Of a DNA stretch of 64,000 nucleotides, positions 566 to 62,083 are shown in pieces (the first letter of the stretch is position 1; each line of letters starts with the position of its first letter). A model generated the notes under the pieces. The model did no database searches. It saw nothing but the letters and a program-made list of their open reading frames with translations, and was not told the DNA's origin. This DNA is from Eledone cirrhosa (taxonomy: Eukaryota). A program made the position numbers and the translations under genes. The stretch covers positions 62,001 through 126,000 of the forward strand of contig CAXHJY010001693.1 of assembly GCA_964016885.1 (NCBI GenBank). Reading direction: 5' to 3'.

Positions 566-14224
<13,659 letters not shown>

Positions 14225-21500: not shown

Positions 21501-22980
21501 CTGGAACAAAAACGGAGAAAAAAATAGATTAGATAGCTACAAAATATTATACACGTGTTTGTATATATATATATACAGAATGGAAGCACATGGCTTAGTG
21601 GTTAGCGCATTGGCCTTGCAATCGAAAGGTTGTGAGTTCAATTCTCAGACCGGGTGAGGTGTTGTTTCCTTGAGCAAGACACTTTATTTCACATTGCTCC
21701 AGTTTACTCAGCTGTAGAAATGAGATGATAGGACTGGGGTTCCTATCATTCCACTGCAAAGTAGTCGTGGAGGCGCCACGGAAAAAAGCACCCAGCACTC
21801 ACTGTAAATGAGGTTGGTGTTAGGAAGGGCATCCAGCTGTAGAAATCAGGCCAGAATCAGTTCCCGTCCCACCCTTGCAAGCAGGGAAAAGCGGACGTAA
21901 AATGATGATGATGATGAATACAATTGCAAATACAAGTGGCCAAAATGGGATTCCTCCAAAGGGTCTTTGGAGTAACGTTACTCGATAAAGTGCATAGCTT
22001 GGAGATCACAGCTCCGATACTATGGACATGTGGTTAGAATGTCTCAGGCAAGAATTGCTGGACAGATTTTACGGACAAAACCAACCGGCAGGAGACCCAG
22101 CAAGATGGTTGGATAACATCCATGAGTTTGGCTGATCTCGCTGAGAGATCCAGCCAGATTAGTTGGAGACGGTTGCTTCTGACAGGACCAGGAGTGTTTG
22201 AGGACTCTGCTCCTACGACCTTCTCAGGAATAACTGGACGAAGAAGAAGAGAACCAAGGGGGTTTTAGGCAGTTTGGTTTGGTATGAAAAGGATCAAAGA
22301 CAGCTACCAACCTTCGACCAAGTGTTGAGTATCGTGATAAATTCCTTAGAATCAACGCTGCAGTTAATCTGATGTGTTTTGTAACTGGTCCTTCACGAGC
22401 TTCCTGGAGAGAAAAGTAACAGAAATTCGAATTAGAAATGAAAATATATATATATGTGTGTATATATATATATAGAGAGAGAGAGAATATAGTAGTGATC
22501 AGATTCAGTTAGGGGAAATCGAAGACTGTGTCAACATGCAATGGTTTTAACTCGACAAGTGAAAGGTTTATCCTAGTGTTTCCGTGGTGGTTAACCGTGG
22601 GTACAATGAAGGTAATTCCAGGAGTGTTTATATATAAGAAGTAACATGAATACGACAACATCGCAGTTAGAGAACTAACATTTATTTATTATGTAATTAT
22701 ATAATAAATGTTGATCCTCTAACTGTGATGTTGTCATATCCATGTTACTTTATATATATATAATGTAAATAAAGAAAGAAAAAAAGGAAAAGCCGACATG
22801 TTATCAACATCGAGTTAGGTTGATGTGATTTTGAAAAATTTATTTTACTCTTTGTCTTATTAATCTCAGTAAAATAAACACATGTTCAGCTCAACTTACA
22901 CACATATATAAACACACATGAATATAGGCTCTTAGACACACAGCAGAAATATTTATACATACATATATACATAAACATGT

Positions 22981-23023
<43 letters not shown>

Positions 23024-24565
23024 AAAAAAGGAAGCTGATCATCAGACTGGACCGAGGAAACAGTGTTTCCATTGGTCTGTCGCAACTCCTGGCAGAAGGA
23101 GGTAAGATTTGAACCCAGAAGACACAGGAGGGCACTGGAACAAATACCAAAGTATTTGATGTGACACTTTAACCACAACAACCAGCATGACATCACCACT
23201 ACACTACCACCACTCCAACAACCATCAAAACAGTTACCACAATCACAATTGCGACCACCATCTCCATCACAACCCCCACTAAAGTAACCACCATCACAGC
23301 ACCACACCACTATAACAACAACCACCACCACCTCTACAACAACAACAACCACCACTACTACTATAACCACCACAGCACCACACCACTACAACAACAACCA
23401 CCACTACTATAACCACCACAAGCACCACCACTTCATATAATCTGTTATAATTAAGTCAGGTGAAAATATGGAGAACATTTTTCATCTCGATAAAAAAAAA
23501 CAAAATAACGAAGAAGATAAAAGATAAAAAAAGATGAAAGACAAAATTAAAAATTATAAAAAAAAAAAATCATTCAAAATTATAGAATTTTTAAAAATTA
23601 ATGAATCAAACAACAAAAATATTAATGTCAACAACAACAACATGAGGAACATTTAGACATTAAAAAATACACAAAACATGGACAAGCAATCGCAAAATAT
23701 GAGGAAATAAGAGGTAGGTAGGGATGTAAACATGCAAGGGTTGAGGTAGAAGCAAAGCAAGGGTAATAAAGATGCAGCAAAGATGATTGTTGAAAAGCTC
23801 TAAAAATGGCCATGCACAAATTATCATTATTGTTGTCATTATTATCAATATTTCATTGTGCTTGCCTTGTTCTGTACAGCATCTCCTTCCTGTCGACAGG
23901 TAAAAGGTTAATATGTAGCTTTTAAAGATATTATCACCAACAACCAAGGCTCTCCTTCCCCTCGTTTGTCAACAAAGATTAGGGATTTCAACTCCCAACC
24001 AGCCCCCAAACCCACTTCATAACACACCTCACAACAACATAATCCCACCATCACATACTAGAAGAGATTTAAATACAGTAAGTCCCCCACATTATGAACA
24101 AACTTCCGCAGATAGGAACAGTCCCACGAGGAAAACAAATTAACTGTCGATAACTTTGTTGTCTGTTTTAAACTCCAGATGAACCGAGGATTGCACTGTG
24201 CATAGAGCTTCTCTCACCTTACCAAAGACAATAGTGAAGTGTTCCACTATAATTATATATATATATGAAAAGATTTAGCACCTCGACGGCTGAGCTCTGG
24301 CCAAGTATCGAGTACTCTGGTGGGTTATAGTCTAGCTGGGTTTTACCACACCCTATCTGATATATATATATAAAAAATTTCAGGATCCCGACGGCTGTAT
24401 GTATGTATACCAAGACGGTAGGAAATGGTTTTCCATAGTCTTAGCTGCTCACAGTTACTCATTCACAAAGGATGCTTAGAAGGCAGATAGGATCAAAACA
24501 CTCGGAGTGCTAACCAAATGTATATTTGTAACGGAGCTGTAGCACTAAGAATAAGTCCTGGACCC

Positions 24566-24607
<42 letters not shown>

Positions 24608-26037
24608 TAATTCCACAATTACCAAACCATACTTCAGCACATGCATTTCAAGTTTGGTAATTGCTGTGGAACTAAATCTATACCCAACTTGTCATTTCGA
24701 CTGGGCGCTCTACGAACTTTGGATATAACCTCCAGATATTTCACTACACTATTTTTATTTATTTTTTTTTTTCATCATTTTACGTCAGCTTTTCCCTGCT
24801 TGCAAGGGTGGGACGGGAACTGGTTCTGGCTCGATTTCTACAGCTGGATGCCCTTCCTAACACCAACCTCATTTACACTGAGTCCTGGGTGCTTTTTGCT
24901 GTGGCACCTACACGACCACTTTGCAGTGGAATGATATGGACCCCTGTCCTATCATCTCATTTCTACAGCTGAGTAAACTGGAGCAATGTGAAATAAAGTG
25001 TCTTGCTCAAGGAAACAACACATCACCCAGTCTGAGAATTGAACTCACAACCTTTCGATTGCAAGGCCAATGCTCTAACCACTAAGCCATGTGCCTCCAC
25101 ATATATATATATATATTAGTTCAGATTAAGAGTTTAAGCAATAAATTTCCGCCTTCACCCTAAGCAGGATCATCTGAAACTGAGAAAAATCAATCTGTAG
25201 ACGCAGAAGTAAATATTTAAAAAAGTTACGACCAAATACTGACTTTAGAAAACAGGAAGACATAATGGTGGTGTGAAGATGTTCTCTTGAGACAGGCGAA
25301 ATGTACGCAAGGAGAATAACGTAATTATGTGGAGCAGGAAGAACAAATTCTTGATATGGAAAAATCAGGAGACTAATACACACACACACATATATTATAT
25401 ATATATATATATATATATCAGCTTGAAAAGTTTTTACATATTTCAAAGCTTTGGTCAGTTCATAAGGAACTTCTGGACAGCGTCTGTTCCTAAGACTGAT
25501 TAATGGTGCATTGTGAAGGACCAAGTGCTGCAGACAATGTACGAGTGTTTGACTGTTGTTCAACCATTTCAAGCAAGGCCTCATCTTCCACAACCGAATG
25601 TCACCTTCACTTTGAAACTTCTGAGCCAGTTTTGTGCTACAGATTCGTTGACACTTCCTGGGCCTTCCACATCATTAATTTCTTTTGCCGCTACCCTTGC
25701 ACATAGTTGTTCTTCCACAGGTAGAGTAAAATGGCTCTAATTACAATGTTTTCACCACTCATTATTAAAATAAAGATCAAACAATTCAAAAATGATTGGA
25801 CAACAAGTTGTATCAAACTAATTATATAACATGGAGGTACAAGTTGCCAAATGGGATCAGTGAAAATCCCCCAAAACATTTGAGTCAATAAGGAAATGCC
25901 AAGAAATCGCAGTAGAGGACGACCAAGAAAGACCTGGGCAGAGATGGTGAGAGAAGCCGTGGTGTGAAAGACTCGTCAAACTCATGCAAGTGTTGAAAAA
26001 TGGACGTAAAAAGATGATGATATATATACAGATACAT

Positions 26038-26068
<31 letters not shown>

Positions 26069-29000
26069 CACACACACACATATATCCTCCACCAACACCA
26101 CCCTCATTTATTCCCCTCCCTTCCACCCATGACCATATAGTGTTAGAGTGATTATCTCAGGTGCAGGTTAGACAGGCAAGGTGAAGTAGGGAGGGGGGGT
26201 CAAACTTGTGTGGGGAGGGGGAGAGAGAAGTAGCTGGAAAGAGAGGGAAGGAAAGAGAGAGGAGAGATCCTGTTGAGATGAGAGCTGGCAAGAGAAATAG
26301 CTAGAGTGAGTTAGATACATATAGAGAGTGAGATAGATAGATAGAGAGTGACCAAGAGATAAATAGAAGGAGCGAGATATAGCAAGAGATAGATAGAGAG
26401 TGAGCAAGAGATAGACAGAGGGAGAGAAAGAGAGAGATAGCGATAGATAGATGGAGGGAGAGGGGGAGAGAGAGAGAGAGAGACTCACCTGAAACATCGG
26501 TTTAACACCGAATGGCATCGTAGGGAAAACATAATCGGCGTTTCTCGGTTTGTAATCATATCGCGGGTAATGGTGGACTGAGTGTGGCACAAAGTTTGTG
26601 GGCTACAAGAGAAGATCCAGCTAGGAGTGAGACACGGATGCTCAAGTCATCAACACTAACGAGGTGAGGCTAACGAGCTGAGAAAGGGATGCAGAGTGTT
26701 TGCAGAAATGGATGAGTGCCTGCTGCAAACCCACAAGAGGGGTTTTTAAAAGACAAGACCCGACTGACTGACATAGAAACTTCACCTTTGGAATGATTGA
26801 CTGCAGCAAAACTCAGAGAAAAATAATAACAAAACCCTGATCCACAAAGTGATAAAAACTGGGATTAACCATAAAAATGTTTGCAAAAAAATGGAATTGA
26901 ACCCACAACCTTAAGTTTAAATCCCTAACCACTGGGCCATACGCTTTCATTATATAATAATTATTTCTGATTTAGGCACAGAGCCAACAATTTGGGGGAA
27001 TGGGAAAGTCAAATCGACCCCAGTACATTACTGGTAATTTATTTTATTGACCCCTGTAAGGATGAAAGGCAAAGCTAACCTTGGCAGGTTTTGAACTCAG
27101 AACTTAATGACAAAGATTGACCACAAAAATGTTTAAAAAAAAAGAAAACCTTTGAACACGAACTGCAAATTATGGAAGATCCACCCACTTTTTAAACTGG
27201 GTTTTTCTTTTTTCGGTGATGGATCTAACTCATTGCACCTCAATCACATTTATGAGGGTACCTTCAACAGAGACCCACTCTGTTAAAGATAAGATGACAA
27301 GGGACAATGGTTACAGGACTAAGGACTACAGCAAACAGGAGGGTTTTTATTAAGTCCTGATCAACACAATCGCTGTTACATCTCACACCTATGTAGGTTT
27401 AGCTGGCCTCCTACGATGTTGTATTTCATAGGAGGTTTCTTGGGTGTTTTAATAATAGAGATCCCAGTCCTATCATGTTGTTGTTACATCTCACACCTAT
27501 ATAGGTTTAGCTGGCTTCCTACGAGGTTGTATCTCACAGGAAGTTTCTCGTGTTTTAACGACCCCCCTCCATATCATTAAGATTCTACCCTCCCCAGCTG
27601 AAGGACACAACCCACTGCTCTGCCCAGGGGCAAGAGTTAAAAAGAGGCTTGACCAAGATAATAACACTGGAGATATTAACCAGAGAAATGTTTTAAAGAA
27701 AGAAAAATGGTGACCAAGAGATTACAAACTGTAAGGTACGAAAATTTAAGCCTGAATCAAAGATCAAGCCTGAAGCTAGAGTCAAACCTGAACCGAGAAT
27801 CAAAGATCAAGCCTGAAATAAGAGTTAAGTTGAACCAGGATCAAGCCTGAACCATGACTTAAAACTTGAACTTTGAGTCAAGAGTCAAGTCGACATTTTG
27901 AAACCATACAATGGAAAAAAAAAAAAATTTTTTTTTCTTTGTTTATGTTTAGAAATTTCAACATTGAGGGGGAAAGTTGGGAAGAAGAAATAAAAAAAAA
28001 TATAGAAAACTCGAATAAAAGTTTCAAAACATGCAAACATACAAATAAACAAACAAATCTCTTTTGCAAAAGAGATTAGGGTAGAAGGAGAAAAAAAAAA
28101 AAAAAAAAAGACATTATTATGCAAGATTTGGATTAAAATAATAAAACAATACTTTGGTTAAGTCATGTCAATATTTTCACAAACAAAAATCAATTGAAAA
28201 AAGGACACAAGAAAGATTACCATGCCAACACATCACTAGCTGCCAGAATATCACAAAGAAACAAACAATATATATGTGTATGTATGTGTGTATATATATA
28301 TATATATATAAAATAATGTTGTCTCTGATCGAGACGAAACAAGAGTCTATTTGAATACATATGAAAGTGAGAAAACTCATTGCTCTTCGATCAGCTGACA
28401 GAGGACAGAGACCAGCGGCCAGAGAGACAATAGGTGGGTGGGTGATAGGCAGCTTTCCTACATTTCATCTGACTGTCACCCACCTTGTGTATTGTCTCTG
28501 TTGACCACTGGTCTGTCCTTTCAGGCAGTGTTTTGCTCATCGTTGATCTCATCATCATCATCATCGTTTTACGTCCGTTCTTCCATGCTAGCATGGGTTA
28601 GACGGGTTGTCCTGTTGTGGGCAGTGTCTGGTTGGCTGACCATGCCTTGCTCATACAGGAACTGATTCTGGCTTGGTTTCTACAGCTGGATGCCCTTCCT
28701 AACACCAACCTCATTTACAGTGCGTGCTAGGTGCTTTTTTTCCGTGGCACCTACACGTCAACTTTACAGTGTGGGCTGGGTGCTTTTTTGCCGTGGCACC
28801 TCCACGACCACCTTGCAGTGGGAGGGTGTGGGGGCATATTGTCTATATGCTTCAGCTTGTACCCATGGGAGGTCGGGTACTATGTATTACTGTGTGACGC
28901 CAGAGGTCACGGTCGTGTGTCATCACCTTTGAGAGGTGTAATTGGGTAAGGTCGGCTTTTATCACCTCATCTCAAGTCTTCTTGGGTCTCCCCACTCATC

Positions 29001-29222
29001 TAGCGATGAATTTTCTCATTTTTATATGTATTCAAATACAGTCACACTTCATCTCTATCAGAGACAACATTGTGTATATGTATATATATTGATATATAGT
29101 CTTGGGTGTTAAAAAAAACTATGAGAGAGAAATTAAAACATGCTTCAATAAGTTTTCAAATCTGTTAATAATAATAATGATAATATCAAACAGGAACTTA
29201 TAAACCAGACAAACATAGGTAC

Positions 29223-29264
<42 letters not shown>

Positions 29265-29327
29265 ACACGTGTGTGTGTATATTAAACAAGAGCATCTGAA
29301 CAAATGAACATATGTATGCGTGTGTGT

Positions 29328-29410
<83 letters not shown>

Positions 29411-29877
29411 TATATATATATATATACACACATATATATATACACATACACACATATATATATATATATATTAGACAACAATAAGCAACTAACTAAAAGC
29501 GTTAATTATGTTTCTGAAGTTTCTACCTTTGACATCCACAAATGCAAATATACAGACACAAACACTCCAACATCCGACACACAGACAGAAAAATATTTGG
29601 CTTTCATTCTTTGTGCCAATACATATATATTTATATTGGGTGTATACACATGTAAACATGTTATATATATATATATATATATCTGTACATTGGGTATATA
29701 CACATCTATACATGTCAGAACACAGGTTAACTGAGACTGCAAAAATGTGTGTGTCTGTGTGTATATATATCAGAATGGATTCAGTTAGACCATTACTCTC
29801 CAGAGTACTCAATACTTAGAGTAGCAGAGCATTGTTATATGAATGAGTCAGAACTCCCACATTCATATAATATATAT

Positions 29878-29916
<39 letters not shown>

Positions 29917-31034
29917 CTGACACATTGAGCATATTAGACAGTAAACATGTCAAATTTACGTATTTCCCCATAAAATGAAAAAATGACAAATATCCCTAAT
30001 CGACTGACAACCCTTAATGGGGGTGGTGGTCATCAGAGGATATGTACATAAAACAAGCACAAAGAAATACGTAAGTGAAGGCCTTATATTTATGTATGTT
30101 TTTTTTTGTTGGTCATGATCAAACAGTTAGGGTTGCCCTATAGAAGGGCTCCCTAAATACATACATACACTCCCCTCCGCCCTCTATATCAGTTGATCTG
30201 ATATACCTCCTTCCAATCACTGACATCCAAGACCACATTCAGAATAACTAAATGCCATCCACCGGTCTAATAAACCCCTAATGGTTATATTGTGTCCATT
30301 GTTCTGTCTATCCTATTCCAACTGTAGATGGGACCTGATGCCCTCATCCACAGTCTATATTAACCCTTTACCATCTACATTACTCTATATTTACTATTGT
30401 ATTTTCACAGTAAAGGCTTTACCTCACATAAATATCAAATCTATGAGATTTTGATATTTATTTTGAGAACGATAGCTTAACATTGGTATGAATGGCTGGT
30501 TACAGCCGGTTTGAACAGAAATAGGTGAGAGAGTTCTGACCATCCACAATGTTTCTGTGTATGATGATATTTAGAAAGGCTTAACCCTTTAGTATTTACA
30601 TTACTCTATATTTACTGTCGTATTTTCATGGTAAAAACTATATCTCACATAATATTGAATCTATGAGATTTTGATATTATTTATTTTGAGAAGAGGTGAG
30701 GGAATTCTGGCCAGATTCGGCCGGTTTAAATGCTAAAGGGTTAAAGAAAAACTACTTATAACTGCCTACACACTTCACCACGACAGAATCTTATCTCGTC
30801 CACTTCTTTATCAGATTTTTTACACCTATTCTCATTTTCTTTCTATCCCCCATCCACAAGCCTCTGGACCCTTATATTATATATAAAATATTATTTCTAT
30901 AAGAAGTGACTTCTACAGGTTTAGTTCTGTTTCATATGATGATGGAACACAACTAGTCCTGAAGAAGTCACTTCTCTGGTGATCATTATTTCTATATTTA
31001 TAAGGAAAATAAGTGGGGTTCAAAAAGCGTGCCT

Positions 31035-31083
<49 letters not shown>

Positions 31084-31201
31084 ACCCTTTTTTATTTATA
31101 TACATACCAGGCGCGTTTTCCGAATCCCCCTTTTTTTCATTATCATTTTGCTTATATATTGTGATCTGTAAAGAATTTTTTCTAACCTCCACACTTTTTT
31201 T

Positions 31202-31248
<47 letters not shown>

Positions 31249-31653
31249 AGATCAAAAGATGGTTAAAGGAGTTCCATATATTTTATTATGCGCATTTCAA
31301 AAACAAACATCATCATCCAATAATATTTGTGTTTTCATCAGATAAAACAGGAGAACATGATATGAAGGCTAAAAAACACTTGTGGATAGTGCAGTTTTAA
31401 ATCAACATATAAAACTGCACTATCCACAAGTGTTTTTTAGCCTTCATATCATGTTCTCCTGTTTTATCTGATTAAAACACAAATATTATTGCATGATGAT
31501 GTTTGTTTTTGAAATGCGCATAATAAAATATATGGAACTCCTTTAACCATCTTTTGATCTTATATATTATGCATACTCCAGTCCTACAAACTGTAGAGTG
31601 CTTCTTATCCGATATCTGCATTGCTTTATTGTACTACAATAAAACTCACCTCC

Positions 31654-31707
<54 letters not shown>

Positions 31708-32090
31708 CACACACATATATATATATAAATAATTTACCCTAGCAATTAATATCCTGGTTCATTTCTATTTAATCCATGCATTTTTATATTTTAATCTAAT
31801 TATCTAATTATTATTTTTAGCTAGTGCTGCCAAAATACTATGTTTGATGTGGTTAAAATGTAGTAGTAGTAGTAGTAATAGTAGTAGTAGCAGTAGTAGT
31901 AGTAGTAGTAGTAGTAGTAGCAGTAGTAGTAGTAGTAGCCTTAGGTGAATGATGTTCTCAATAACCGCACGTCATCAGCAGTGATTGAAAACTCACCATT
32001 AACTCAGGGAAAGGTGGCCTTGCTGAAAACCGTCTAATAGCTTGGATGGCAGCGTCCGGAGGATAGACGAGATTAGCAGATCCAGGGGCA

Positions 32091-32122
<32 letters not shown>

Positions 32123-35100
32123 CGACAAGCCGCTGCTTCCAACGACAACACCACCACCACCACCACCACCACTCACACCACTGCCTGCAGTAGAAACACA
32201 GGGTGCACTGATGACAGAAGCAGCTGCAGCGGGGCTCACCTGAAGAGGGGGAAGTAGAGGAGGTTGCGATTGGCTAGGTGGCGCTGCGTGTGCTACTGCA
32301 CCTGGCAAATTCATCTGAGCCGACTGGATGCGCCGCTGGGCTGCGGCTCGTAGAACTGCTTCAGAGCAATGCTGATCCTGCAAAATAAAGAAGAAAAAAG
32401 GGTTGAGTATATTTAGTAAATAAAACAGAGCTGAGAAAAGGGCTCCCAGATTAAATAAAAACCCACCATTTTTATAATAAAGCCTGCCCTTCATCAATCT
32501 CCCTTGTGGCAAATTAAAAGCAAACATTGTATGCTATATGTAGATGTATGTTCTTTAAAGTAGCTTATGAACGAGGATGAAAACCCTTAACTCTTTACAT
32601 TACTTTATATATACTATTGCAATTTCACAATAAAGGCTTTACCTCACATAATATTGGATCTATAAGATTTTGAATCGGCCGATTTCAAATGATAATGAAA
32701 ATTATTGTGTACAGTGCTCAGGTGTACTACAACTCATCAAAAGTGCATGTATAGTACATATAACAATGTACAAATGTCAGGAAAGTGAACAGTATATGAG
32801 TTATGATATACACACAGACACTTGTGTGTGTGTGTGTGTGTATGGAGGGGGACCTTGAAAATATTGGTACCATCATCATTAAAACAAAACTACTGACCAG
32901 AGTGTGTGATTTTAAAGATGGTAGTACCACCACCAAGAGCTACTGACCTGTGTATGTGTGTGACCTTAAAAAGGAGGGAGGTGGTATCACCAAAAAAAAA
33001 CTGACCTGTATGTGTGTGACCAAAGACCATTTCTTCCTTTCCAATTTTTCACAGCCTTCCCATTTACAAACTCCATCAGACTCTGCCATAACATGTGCAC
33101 TGTAAACATGACTGTATACACCCTTGCTGGTCTCAAAACAGCTGAAAAAGAGAGGAAAGAGAATCTCAGTGGAAGATTATGGAGAAGAAAGGAGTCACAT
33201 TTCAGAAGAAGTCTTTAAATTCTTTTGTTGCGAAACTGCCTGATACAAAACTACTCATTTTAAAATGTTTATTTCATTTTTTTTTCATTCATCATTTTAC
33301 GTCCGCTTTTCCCTGCTTGCAAGGGTGGGACGGGAACTGATTCTGGCTTGATTTCTACAGCTGGATGCCCTTCCTAACACCAACCTCATTTACAGTGAGT
33401 GCTGGGTGCTTTTTTTTTTTTGCCGTGGCACCTCCACGACCACTTTGCAGTGGAATGATAGGGACCCCAGTCCCTATCATCTCATTTCTACAGCTGAGTA
33501 AACTGGAGCAATGTGAAATAAAATGTCTTGCTCAAGGAAACAACACATCACCCGGTCTGAGAATTGAACTCACAACCTTTCAATTGCAAGCCCAATGCTC
33601 TAACCACTAAGCCATGTGCCTCCATATCTTTATATTAAAAGTTTCTACTGCAATTTTATTTAAGAAACTAATGTTAAGTATTGTTAAAAATTTCAGCCTG
33701 CTAATGAAAAACTTATTTTATTAAATTCTTCTAATGTTTTGGTTATTTTCAAAATTTATTTATTTAAACTGCATTTTATTAGAAATACGGTAATGAAAGG
33801 GTTAATAACTAAGTATTACAGACCAAAGGGCATGCCTACTGGGAACAGCAGGGACCTTCCAATACATCCAGAATATCTGAGGCTGAAGGTAGTGGCTTGA
33901 TGTTCATTTAGGCAAATTTTCCGGTTAAATAACAACAATGACGGATGTCAAAGTAATAATTGTTTCTACTTTAGGCACAAGGCCAGCAATTACTCAGTAC
34001 ATTACTGGTACTTTATTTTATCGACCCCGTAAGGATGAAAGGCAAAGTTAACCTCAGCGGGATTTGAACTCAGACTGTAAAGGGACGTAACTATGCTAGA
34101 AAACATGGCGTCCAACCCTCTACCGATACTGCCAATTCACCGCCCTATGTCAAAGTAATAATGATAATTGTTTCTAGTATAGGCACAAGGCCAGCAATTG
34201 TGGGGAAGGGGAAAGTCGATTAAATCGACCCCAGTATATTACTGGTACTTTATTCTATCGATCTCATAAGGACGAAAGGCAAAGTTAACCTCAACGGGAT
34301 TTGAACTTAGACTGTAAAGAGCTGTAACTATGCCACAAAGCATGTCCGACGCTCTACCGATTCTGCCAATCCACCGCCCTAATAATAATGACAATAATAA
34401 TAACAACAACAAAGAAGACTTACCGTTTACAGCTGGCCCACTCACAGACAAATTCCGAACCAACAGATGGCGAACATCTCGAGTCTGCACTACCAGTATT
34501 GTTCCGAATTCGCTTCCGAGCCTTAACCAACTTATCAGCACCTGAGCCTGGAACACCTTTCGGAGATATGGACTGAGCAGGACGTAGGGCAGTGTCTTTA
34601 CTATCTTTACTATACAACAGAGTACCGCCCGACAAAAGGGTACCCTGATTAAAGTTGGAATGCTGTTTTTCAAAAGCGTCCTGCACTGAAGAAACACTAG
34701 AGCTGTCGCAACTGATGTCCCCATCACCAGAATCTGATGCTGGGACCAGCCGTGACTCACAAGTCCTATTTACATGGCTACATAACACAGTTGAATTGGG
34801 TTTGTCAGATTTTTTGTTCTTCAAACAATTGCTACCGGAACATTCTGTCTGCCGCTGTTTCTTGGCACCGCAACTCAAGTGCGTGGCACTCACCTTTTGC
34901 TCAATGTTATTATTGTCTATTAAAAATTTACAATCGCCTACCGTCTCCTGTAGTCCGTTCACGACGACAACACAACCATTTTCCGGAACCCTACCGACAA
35001 CAACAGAAGATGAAGAATTTGATGATGATGATGATGACAAAGATGACACACTTGCTTTCCGCTTTCTCTCTTTTTGATTCTCTGCCGAGAGCTGTAGTTT

Positions 35101-62026: not shown

Positions 62027-62083
62027 GCTGTTATAAGCATTTCAATGGTATCAATTACACAAGATACAACCTCATCAGACAGC
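62027..62083 (-). ncRNA. Hammerhead motif in the ARID2 intron upstream of exon 61810-61903 (sense strand)
   Basis: gctgt-CTGATGA-ggttgtatc...gataccatt-GAAAT-gctt-ATA-acagc; AATAAA ~13 nt downstream, then (TA)n. Confidence 0.72.

Follow-up and report, generated by a model that had tools for sequence, protein, structure and literature searches.

The window, a 64,000-nucleotide stretch of Eledone cirrhosa DNA (contig CAXHJY010001693.1 of assembly GCA_964016885.1), carries part of the ARID2 gene on its minus strand. The exons flanking the feature described here match human ARID2 with E values of 1.5e-18 and 2.5e-9, and Pfam returned nothing above cut-off on the ARID2 pieces. By frame and homology, the next ARID2 exon begins at 22403. 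The donor GT of the upstream exon occupies 31996-31995, 431 nt from the near end of a long palindrome at 31565, which agrees with the roughly 430 nt claimed in an earlier note on this DNA. Two arms of 156 nt each, at 31244-31399 and 31410-31565, enclose a 10-nt loop and differ at exactly two mismatched pairs, 31317/31492 and 31336/31473; recomputed from the assembly, these figures are those of the earlier note. The note's outer limits (31244-31565) are correct for the arms, but the insert as a whole spans 31244-31657 and thus runs about 90 nt further, with a short arm on the left, a long arm on the right, and a tail on the right arm only. The loop itself is element sequence, the left copy extending 11 nt further 5' than the right copy. 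Neither a second ARID2 allele nor an empty site was found in the assembly, where the exon is single-copy. The features of the locus are listed in Table 1.

Table 1. Features of the ARID2 intron insertion, in window coordinates
Feature	Position	Strand	Basis and remarks
Host ARID2 intron, ~9.6 kb	22404..31996	-	Exon join deduced by frame and homology rather than RNA
(TA)n target microsatellite, left part	31206..31243	.	Sequence
Short pLTR copy, Penelope-like element	31244..31410	-	Family's short 3' end; preferred 5' end near -11 reached
Type I minimal hammerhead, core intact, ARID2-sense	31281..31347	-	Motif reading and folding; predicted cut 31287/31286
Head-to-head junction (loop)	31400..31410	.	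Identical 32-nt junction at 16 loci
Long pLTR copy including tail	31411..31657	+	Comparison with family copies
Second hammerhead motif, rare core change G8>U at 31473	31462..31528	+	Motif reading
One-sided tail, ~90 nt	31566..31657	+	Comparison with family copies
(TA)n target microsatellite, right part	31658..31703	.	Sequence
ARID2 exon upstream of insert, 381 nt	31997..32377	-	Boundaries inferred from AG/GT and frame

The arm belongs to an abundant repeat family. It matched 56 places among 40 scored candidates. For a 29-mer covering the hammerhead core and stem II, the genome contains 10,865 exact matches with C at the loop position of stem II, 23 when that base is G, and none for the reversed 29-mer. 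At other loci the arm is a 3' repeat adjoining one open reading frame (ORF) that encodes a reverse transcriptase (RT; YRDD), a CxCx5C linker, and, C-terminally, a GIY-YIG-type nuclease. Arm and ORF were joined in 19 of the 20 loci L031-L050, which had been found by a query containing both. In L043, tandem repeats lie 3,579 nt apart, giving a unit of 3.6 kb; the pLTRs are tandem in L043 and L045 and inverted in L034, L040, and L041. Pfam detected no RT or GIY-YIG family above cut-off in the element ORFs, and among Atlas neighbors, scoring 0.95-0.98, several carry RVT_1 and GIY-YIG. DKT stands in place of DKG in L043, L045, and L050, CxxC and CxH surround the E and N residues, CCHH is absent, and the RWK position reads RWI or RWT.

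This set of motifs, rather than a tree, makes it likely that the element belongs to the Hydra clade of endonuclease-bearing Penelope-like elements. As published, that clade is defined by the presence of DKT, CxCx5C, CxxC, and CxH, by the lack of CCHH, by a hammerhead, and by insertion into (TA)n; the supplement of that work lists an octopus member, Hydra-1_Obim of Octopus bimaculoides (PMC8557442). The C-terminal nuclease, the location of the hammerhead in the 3' repeat, the inverted truncated copy, and the one-sided tail described for the clade, which includes Hydra-1_Obim, are likewise found here. Judged by eye, Hydra-1_Obim is a separate family, and the one described here has another hammerhead sequence with a 16-bp stem II. 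Further differences from the published description are the unit length (under 3 kb versus 3.6 kb here), the tail (30-40 nt versus about 90 nt here), RWI or RWT in place of RWK, and the more than 10,000 copies found here. Naiad elements are recognized by an N-terminal nuclease and the lack of a canonical hammerhead, unlike this family, whose nuclease lies at the C terminus and which does carry a hammerhead. Non-LTR retrozymes, considered as another candidate, consist of head-to-tail tandem hammerhead units and were rejected, the arrangement being head to head with one sense copy per strand. The family is a new one of a known kind of element, and the palindrome has the form in which inverted pLTRs of Penelope-like elements ordinarily appear, a point the earlier note had missed. 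Our literature searches, to which bioRxiv supplements did not belong, yielded no account of this family, nor of an editing-released hammerhead, although the latter was not squarely targeted. In run X5, from another organism, nothing aligned to the family, which does not prove that it is absent there. At L008/L009 and L029, copies of the family have other Penelope-like ORFs as neighbors, which suggests shared (TA)n targets.

Read from 31347 to 31281 on the minus strand, the left arm contains a stem I of 6 bp, all A-U, followed by CUGAUGA, stem II, GAAA, the palindromic stem III (A-UGCGCA-U), and a UA at which cleavage is predicted. The intact core, stem I, and stem III are as the earlier note described them; its stem II of about 16 bp comprises 15 pairs over 16 positions, with one C-U mismatch and four G-U pairs. 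The pair closing stem II is A-U, where active hammerheads usually have G10.1-C11.1. The note also placed one of the two mismatches in the core of the opposite copy, and CTGATTA is indeed read at 31468-31474. Exact matches to this right-arm G8>U form number 14 genome-wide, and the position is G in essentially all contigs and reads aligned in the family pile-up. The other mismatch, at 31317, is a private C>G change within the left arm's stem II loop, and a rare one, since the C form so greatly outnumbers the G form among the 29-mer matches. Common variants (at least 5% in run X1) occupy 3 of 67 positions inside the hammerhead and 11 of 89 beside it (Fisher p 0.10), which is only suggestive of a hammerhead less variable than the adjoining arm sequence; all three inside it keep the fold.

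The minimal hammerheads described for Penelope-like elements are also of type I, with a long stem II, a short stem I, and a palindromic stem III; the present motif differs in having A10.1-U11.1 for G-C and a stem II roughly double the 7-8 bp that is usual (PMC4209133). Opposite-strand hammerhead pairs 100-700 bp apart were already noted in Schistosoma in that 2014 report. Single minimal hammerheads of this kind are described as giving no cleavage in vitro, and the hammerhead of Poseidon from Anolis carolinensis is reported to have required the element's protein (PMC11167929). Nearest-neighbor models give the full palindrome a folding energy of -248 kcal/mol and put the cost of forcing the hammerhead at 90 kcal/mol; the isolated arm adopts the monomer hammerhead fold with a probability of about 1e-4. 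Motifs of this type depend on a dimer, and with one sense hammerhead copy per strand none can arise in cis. The folding prediction supports the earlier claim that the antisense arm, transcribed first in ARID2 pre-mRNA, sequesters the motif; the hammerhead is predicted to be locked in the hairpin and inert at this locus, and the hairpin to be removed with the intron.

Head-to-head pairs are frequent in the family. Among the first 100 matches listed, which represent 55.7 Mb of one contig, 17 such pairs lie within 300 nt and 14 more within 6 kb, around a longer body, and none is tail to tail. Extrapolation gives between about 900 (by length) and about 1,900 (by match count) close palindromes genome-wide. 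We compared arm ends at 79 loci with 128 arms, a set gathered by several searches rather than at random, after removal of 16 duplicate loci. The 3' ends fall into two classes, short (65 arms) and long (60), with three others. Short was paired with long in 42 of 46 head-to-head pairs; one was long+long, and in three an end was intermediate, in one case through an alignment effect. Forty-two of the 43 classed pairs follow this rule (p 5e-12 against free choice), and the tail is at one end only in 42 of the 46. The 5' ends of close pairs cluster at -15 to -7 (54 of 80, 32 of the 80 coming from 16 loci chosen for the junction of the ARID2-intron palindrome).

Taken together, the locus very probably consists of two pLTRs, both truncated at their 5' ends, which come from an abundant retrotransposon of the Penelope-like kind (likely a member of the Hydra clade) and stand head to head within a (TA)n run of the ARID2 intron. 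The hammerhead is the element's own and is predicted to be inert here. The element's protein would have nicked the (TA)n tract through its nuclease, and both arms would stem from one insertion event and one source. Most likely, the RT primed at two fixed sites, about +165 and about +252, one per strand, and both copies were extended as far as the 5' end of the RNA, near -11, before being joined head to head. Each arm would have gained one change after insertion, and the resulting 156-bp duplex in ARID2 pre-mRNA, perhaps A-to-I edited, is predicted to be spliced out with the intron.

Two related systems bear on this sequence of steps. Penelope elements of Adineta vaga, as described, share the inverted pLTR, the junction palindrome, the single-pLTR tail, and the usual head-to-head orientation (PMC3846280); here, by contrast, there is often no body between the arms, and any target duplication is hidden by (TA)n. 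Self-priming was proposed for the inverted structures of A. vaga in the same work, and fold-back self-priming with later flipping of the center is an alternative to two primings. The arm reaching further 5' at the 16 same-junction loci is the short one in 12 and the long one in 4 (p 0.08 against 50:50), and these orientations do not distinguish the two. For Poseidon, the published in vitro results include two internal RT start sites that set the tail, an AT-rich target, and cutting and extension of both target strands (PMC11167929). That element is of another clade, and the results described for it include no start-site difference between strands, whereas short+long pairs prevail here. Priming at two sites, one per strand, would extend the two-start-site result. 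It is tempting, if rather doubtful as a complete scheme, to envisage a dimeric complex that primes the strands at different sites (+165 and +252) and never at the same one, copies to about -11, at times repeating the final 7-10 nt as a telomerase does (L027), and joins the cDNAs; at least about a thousand palindromes would also constitute genome-wide intronic ADAR substrates. The value of the locus lies in what it can tell about a step of Penelope-like transposition that is still open, namely, the origin of inverted structures and of the one-sided tail; the near-strict short+long rule and the fixed 5' end are predictions that can be checked by counting in the in vitro system already available. 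In L027 the junction between the arms contains the terminal 7-10 nt of the 5' end recopied in tandem about six times, a pattern resembling template-end slippage.

The identical junction shared with the ARID2-intron locus at 16 loci and the stereotyped ends might point to a mobile palindrome, a MITE-like or retrozyme-like non-autonomous unit copied whole from a master palindrome. We consider this very improbable: among the 16 loci, four or more variant haplotypes are represented, a locus has one and the same haplotype in its two arms, and the junction occurs in both orientations. Arms differ by 0.97% within loci and by 4.8% between them, and together with the haplotypes this implies that the palindromes are made anew at each insertion, from one source. 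Loops in other palindromes range from 4 to over 60 nt, and insertions that retain up to kilobases of element body are bounded by the same ends. A flip/flop hairpin signature, usually with G in one arm and C in the other at the stem II loop in the first 30 loci, was rejected; the genome-wide counts of the two forms show that this pattern arose because the query was the rare G arm.

That the feature is an insertion, as the earlier note had it, is supported, and TA runs flank both sides in all 16 same-junction copies. "Very young" goes too far: arm differences at these loci range from 0 to 8 columns with a median of 2, the value at the ARID2 locus, and three loci have none; seven palindromes sampled without G bias show 0-3 events. 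From these comparisons, the palindrome is typical of a recently active family rather than unusually young, and conversion between arms could hide age. An assembly or long-read fold-back artifact at this locus is very improbable. The contig that carries it (C1720) is small, and the core-mutant letter is nearly absent from aligned contigs (4.4 of 602,944 depth) and could be a consensus error at one base; however, the fold-back is limited to the element, with unique flanks on both sides and an asymmetric tail, whereas an artifactual one would be expected to mirror the flanks too, and the same junction is found at 15 other loci.

The earlier note had called the duplex an ideal ADAR substrate and proposed that editing could free the ribozyme. 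In the family pile-up, run X4 shows T>C at 4.7% at 31521 and 3.3% at 31544, compared with at most 0.14% in X1 and X21. Run X4 is probably RNA, its word share fitting exon-only cover, and X1 and X21 are DNA-like. Both sites have a 5' U neighbor on the antisense strand, the context that ADARs are reported to prefer, and young repeats are described as the main editing targets in animals (PMC9989829). This family-level, not locus-specific, pile-up is a hint that the family is A-to-I edited on antisense arms, and the duplex is a plausible ADAR substrate. We also simulated editing of 10-75% of non-core adenosines (12 draws each), with inosine approximated as G or as unpairable. The cost of the hammerhead never fell below 59 kcal/mol (as G) or 27 kcal/mol (unpairable), and all five core adenosines escape 75% editing with a probability of 0.001. 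Release of the ribozyme by editing is thereby not supported, since the gap persists at 75% editing and core adenosines would be edited as well. An editing-gated switch, in which ADAR melts the duplex, frees the sense hammerhead, and leads to cutting of ARID2 pre-mRNA, would tie RNA editing in cephalopods to the control of a chromatin gene by a ribozyme, and the intact sense core, the antisense arm transcribed first, and the two X4 sites in their 5' U context are in its favor; yet it is highly improbable given these energetics, the exclusion of a cis dimer, the family-level nature of the editing hint, and the recurrence of the same layout at the extrapolated 900-1,900 loci, and an ordinary insertion is most likely. 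In X4, depth halves at the family's predicted cut site (31522-31539), and in X1 it does not; contigs cannot show ends.

A special link of the palindrome to ARID2 is not supported for an element of such copy number, and the insertion, one of many alike, matters little to its host. On the minus strand, in ARID2 sense, the tail contains a donor-like GAG/GTGAGT at 31644-31657, with its GT at 31649-31648, 347 nt into the intron, and an AATAAA at 31630-31625. Use of this candidate donor would add 347 nt, in which a stop codon would be met in frame after 12 codons, and it seems a likelier path to a host effect than the ribozyme.

Rfam, at gathering score, found no hammerhead in the window and only a weak tRNA match at 25028-25091; the latter lies in a repeated element with similar copies near 8000, 13000, 21700, and 33400, and is probably a SINE head. 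A loose motif scan gave three further hammerhead-like motifs on the minus strand, at 62078, 15302, and 7915, that at 62078 laid out like the left-arm hammerhead. A second head-to-head palindrome in the window, at 9689-9874, has 77-nt arms, adjoins (TA)n, and is unrelated in sequence to the ARID2-intron palindrome; it is probably the stub of another Penelope-like family.
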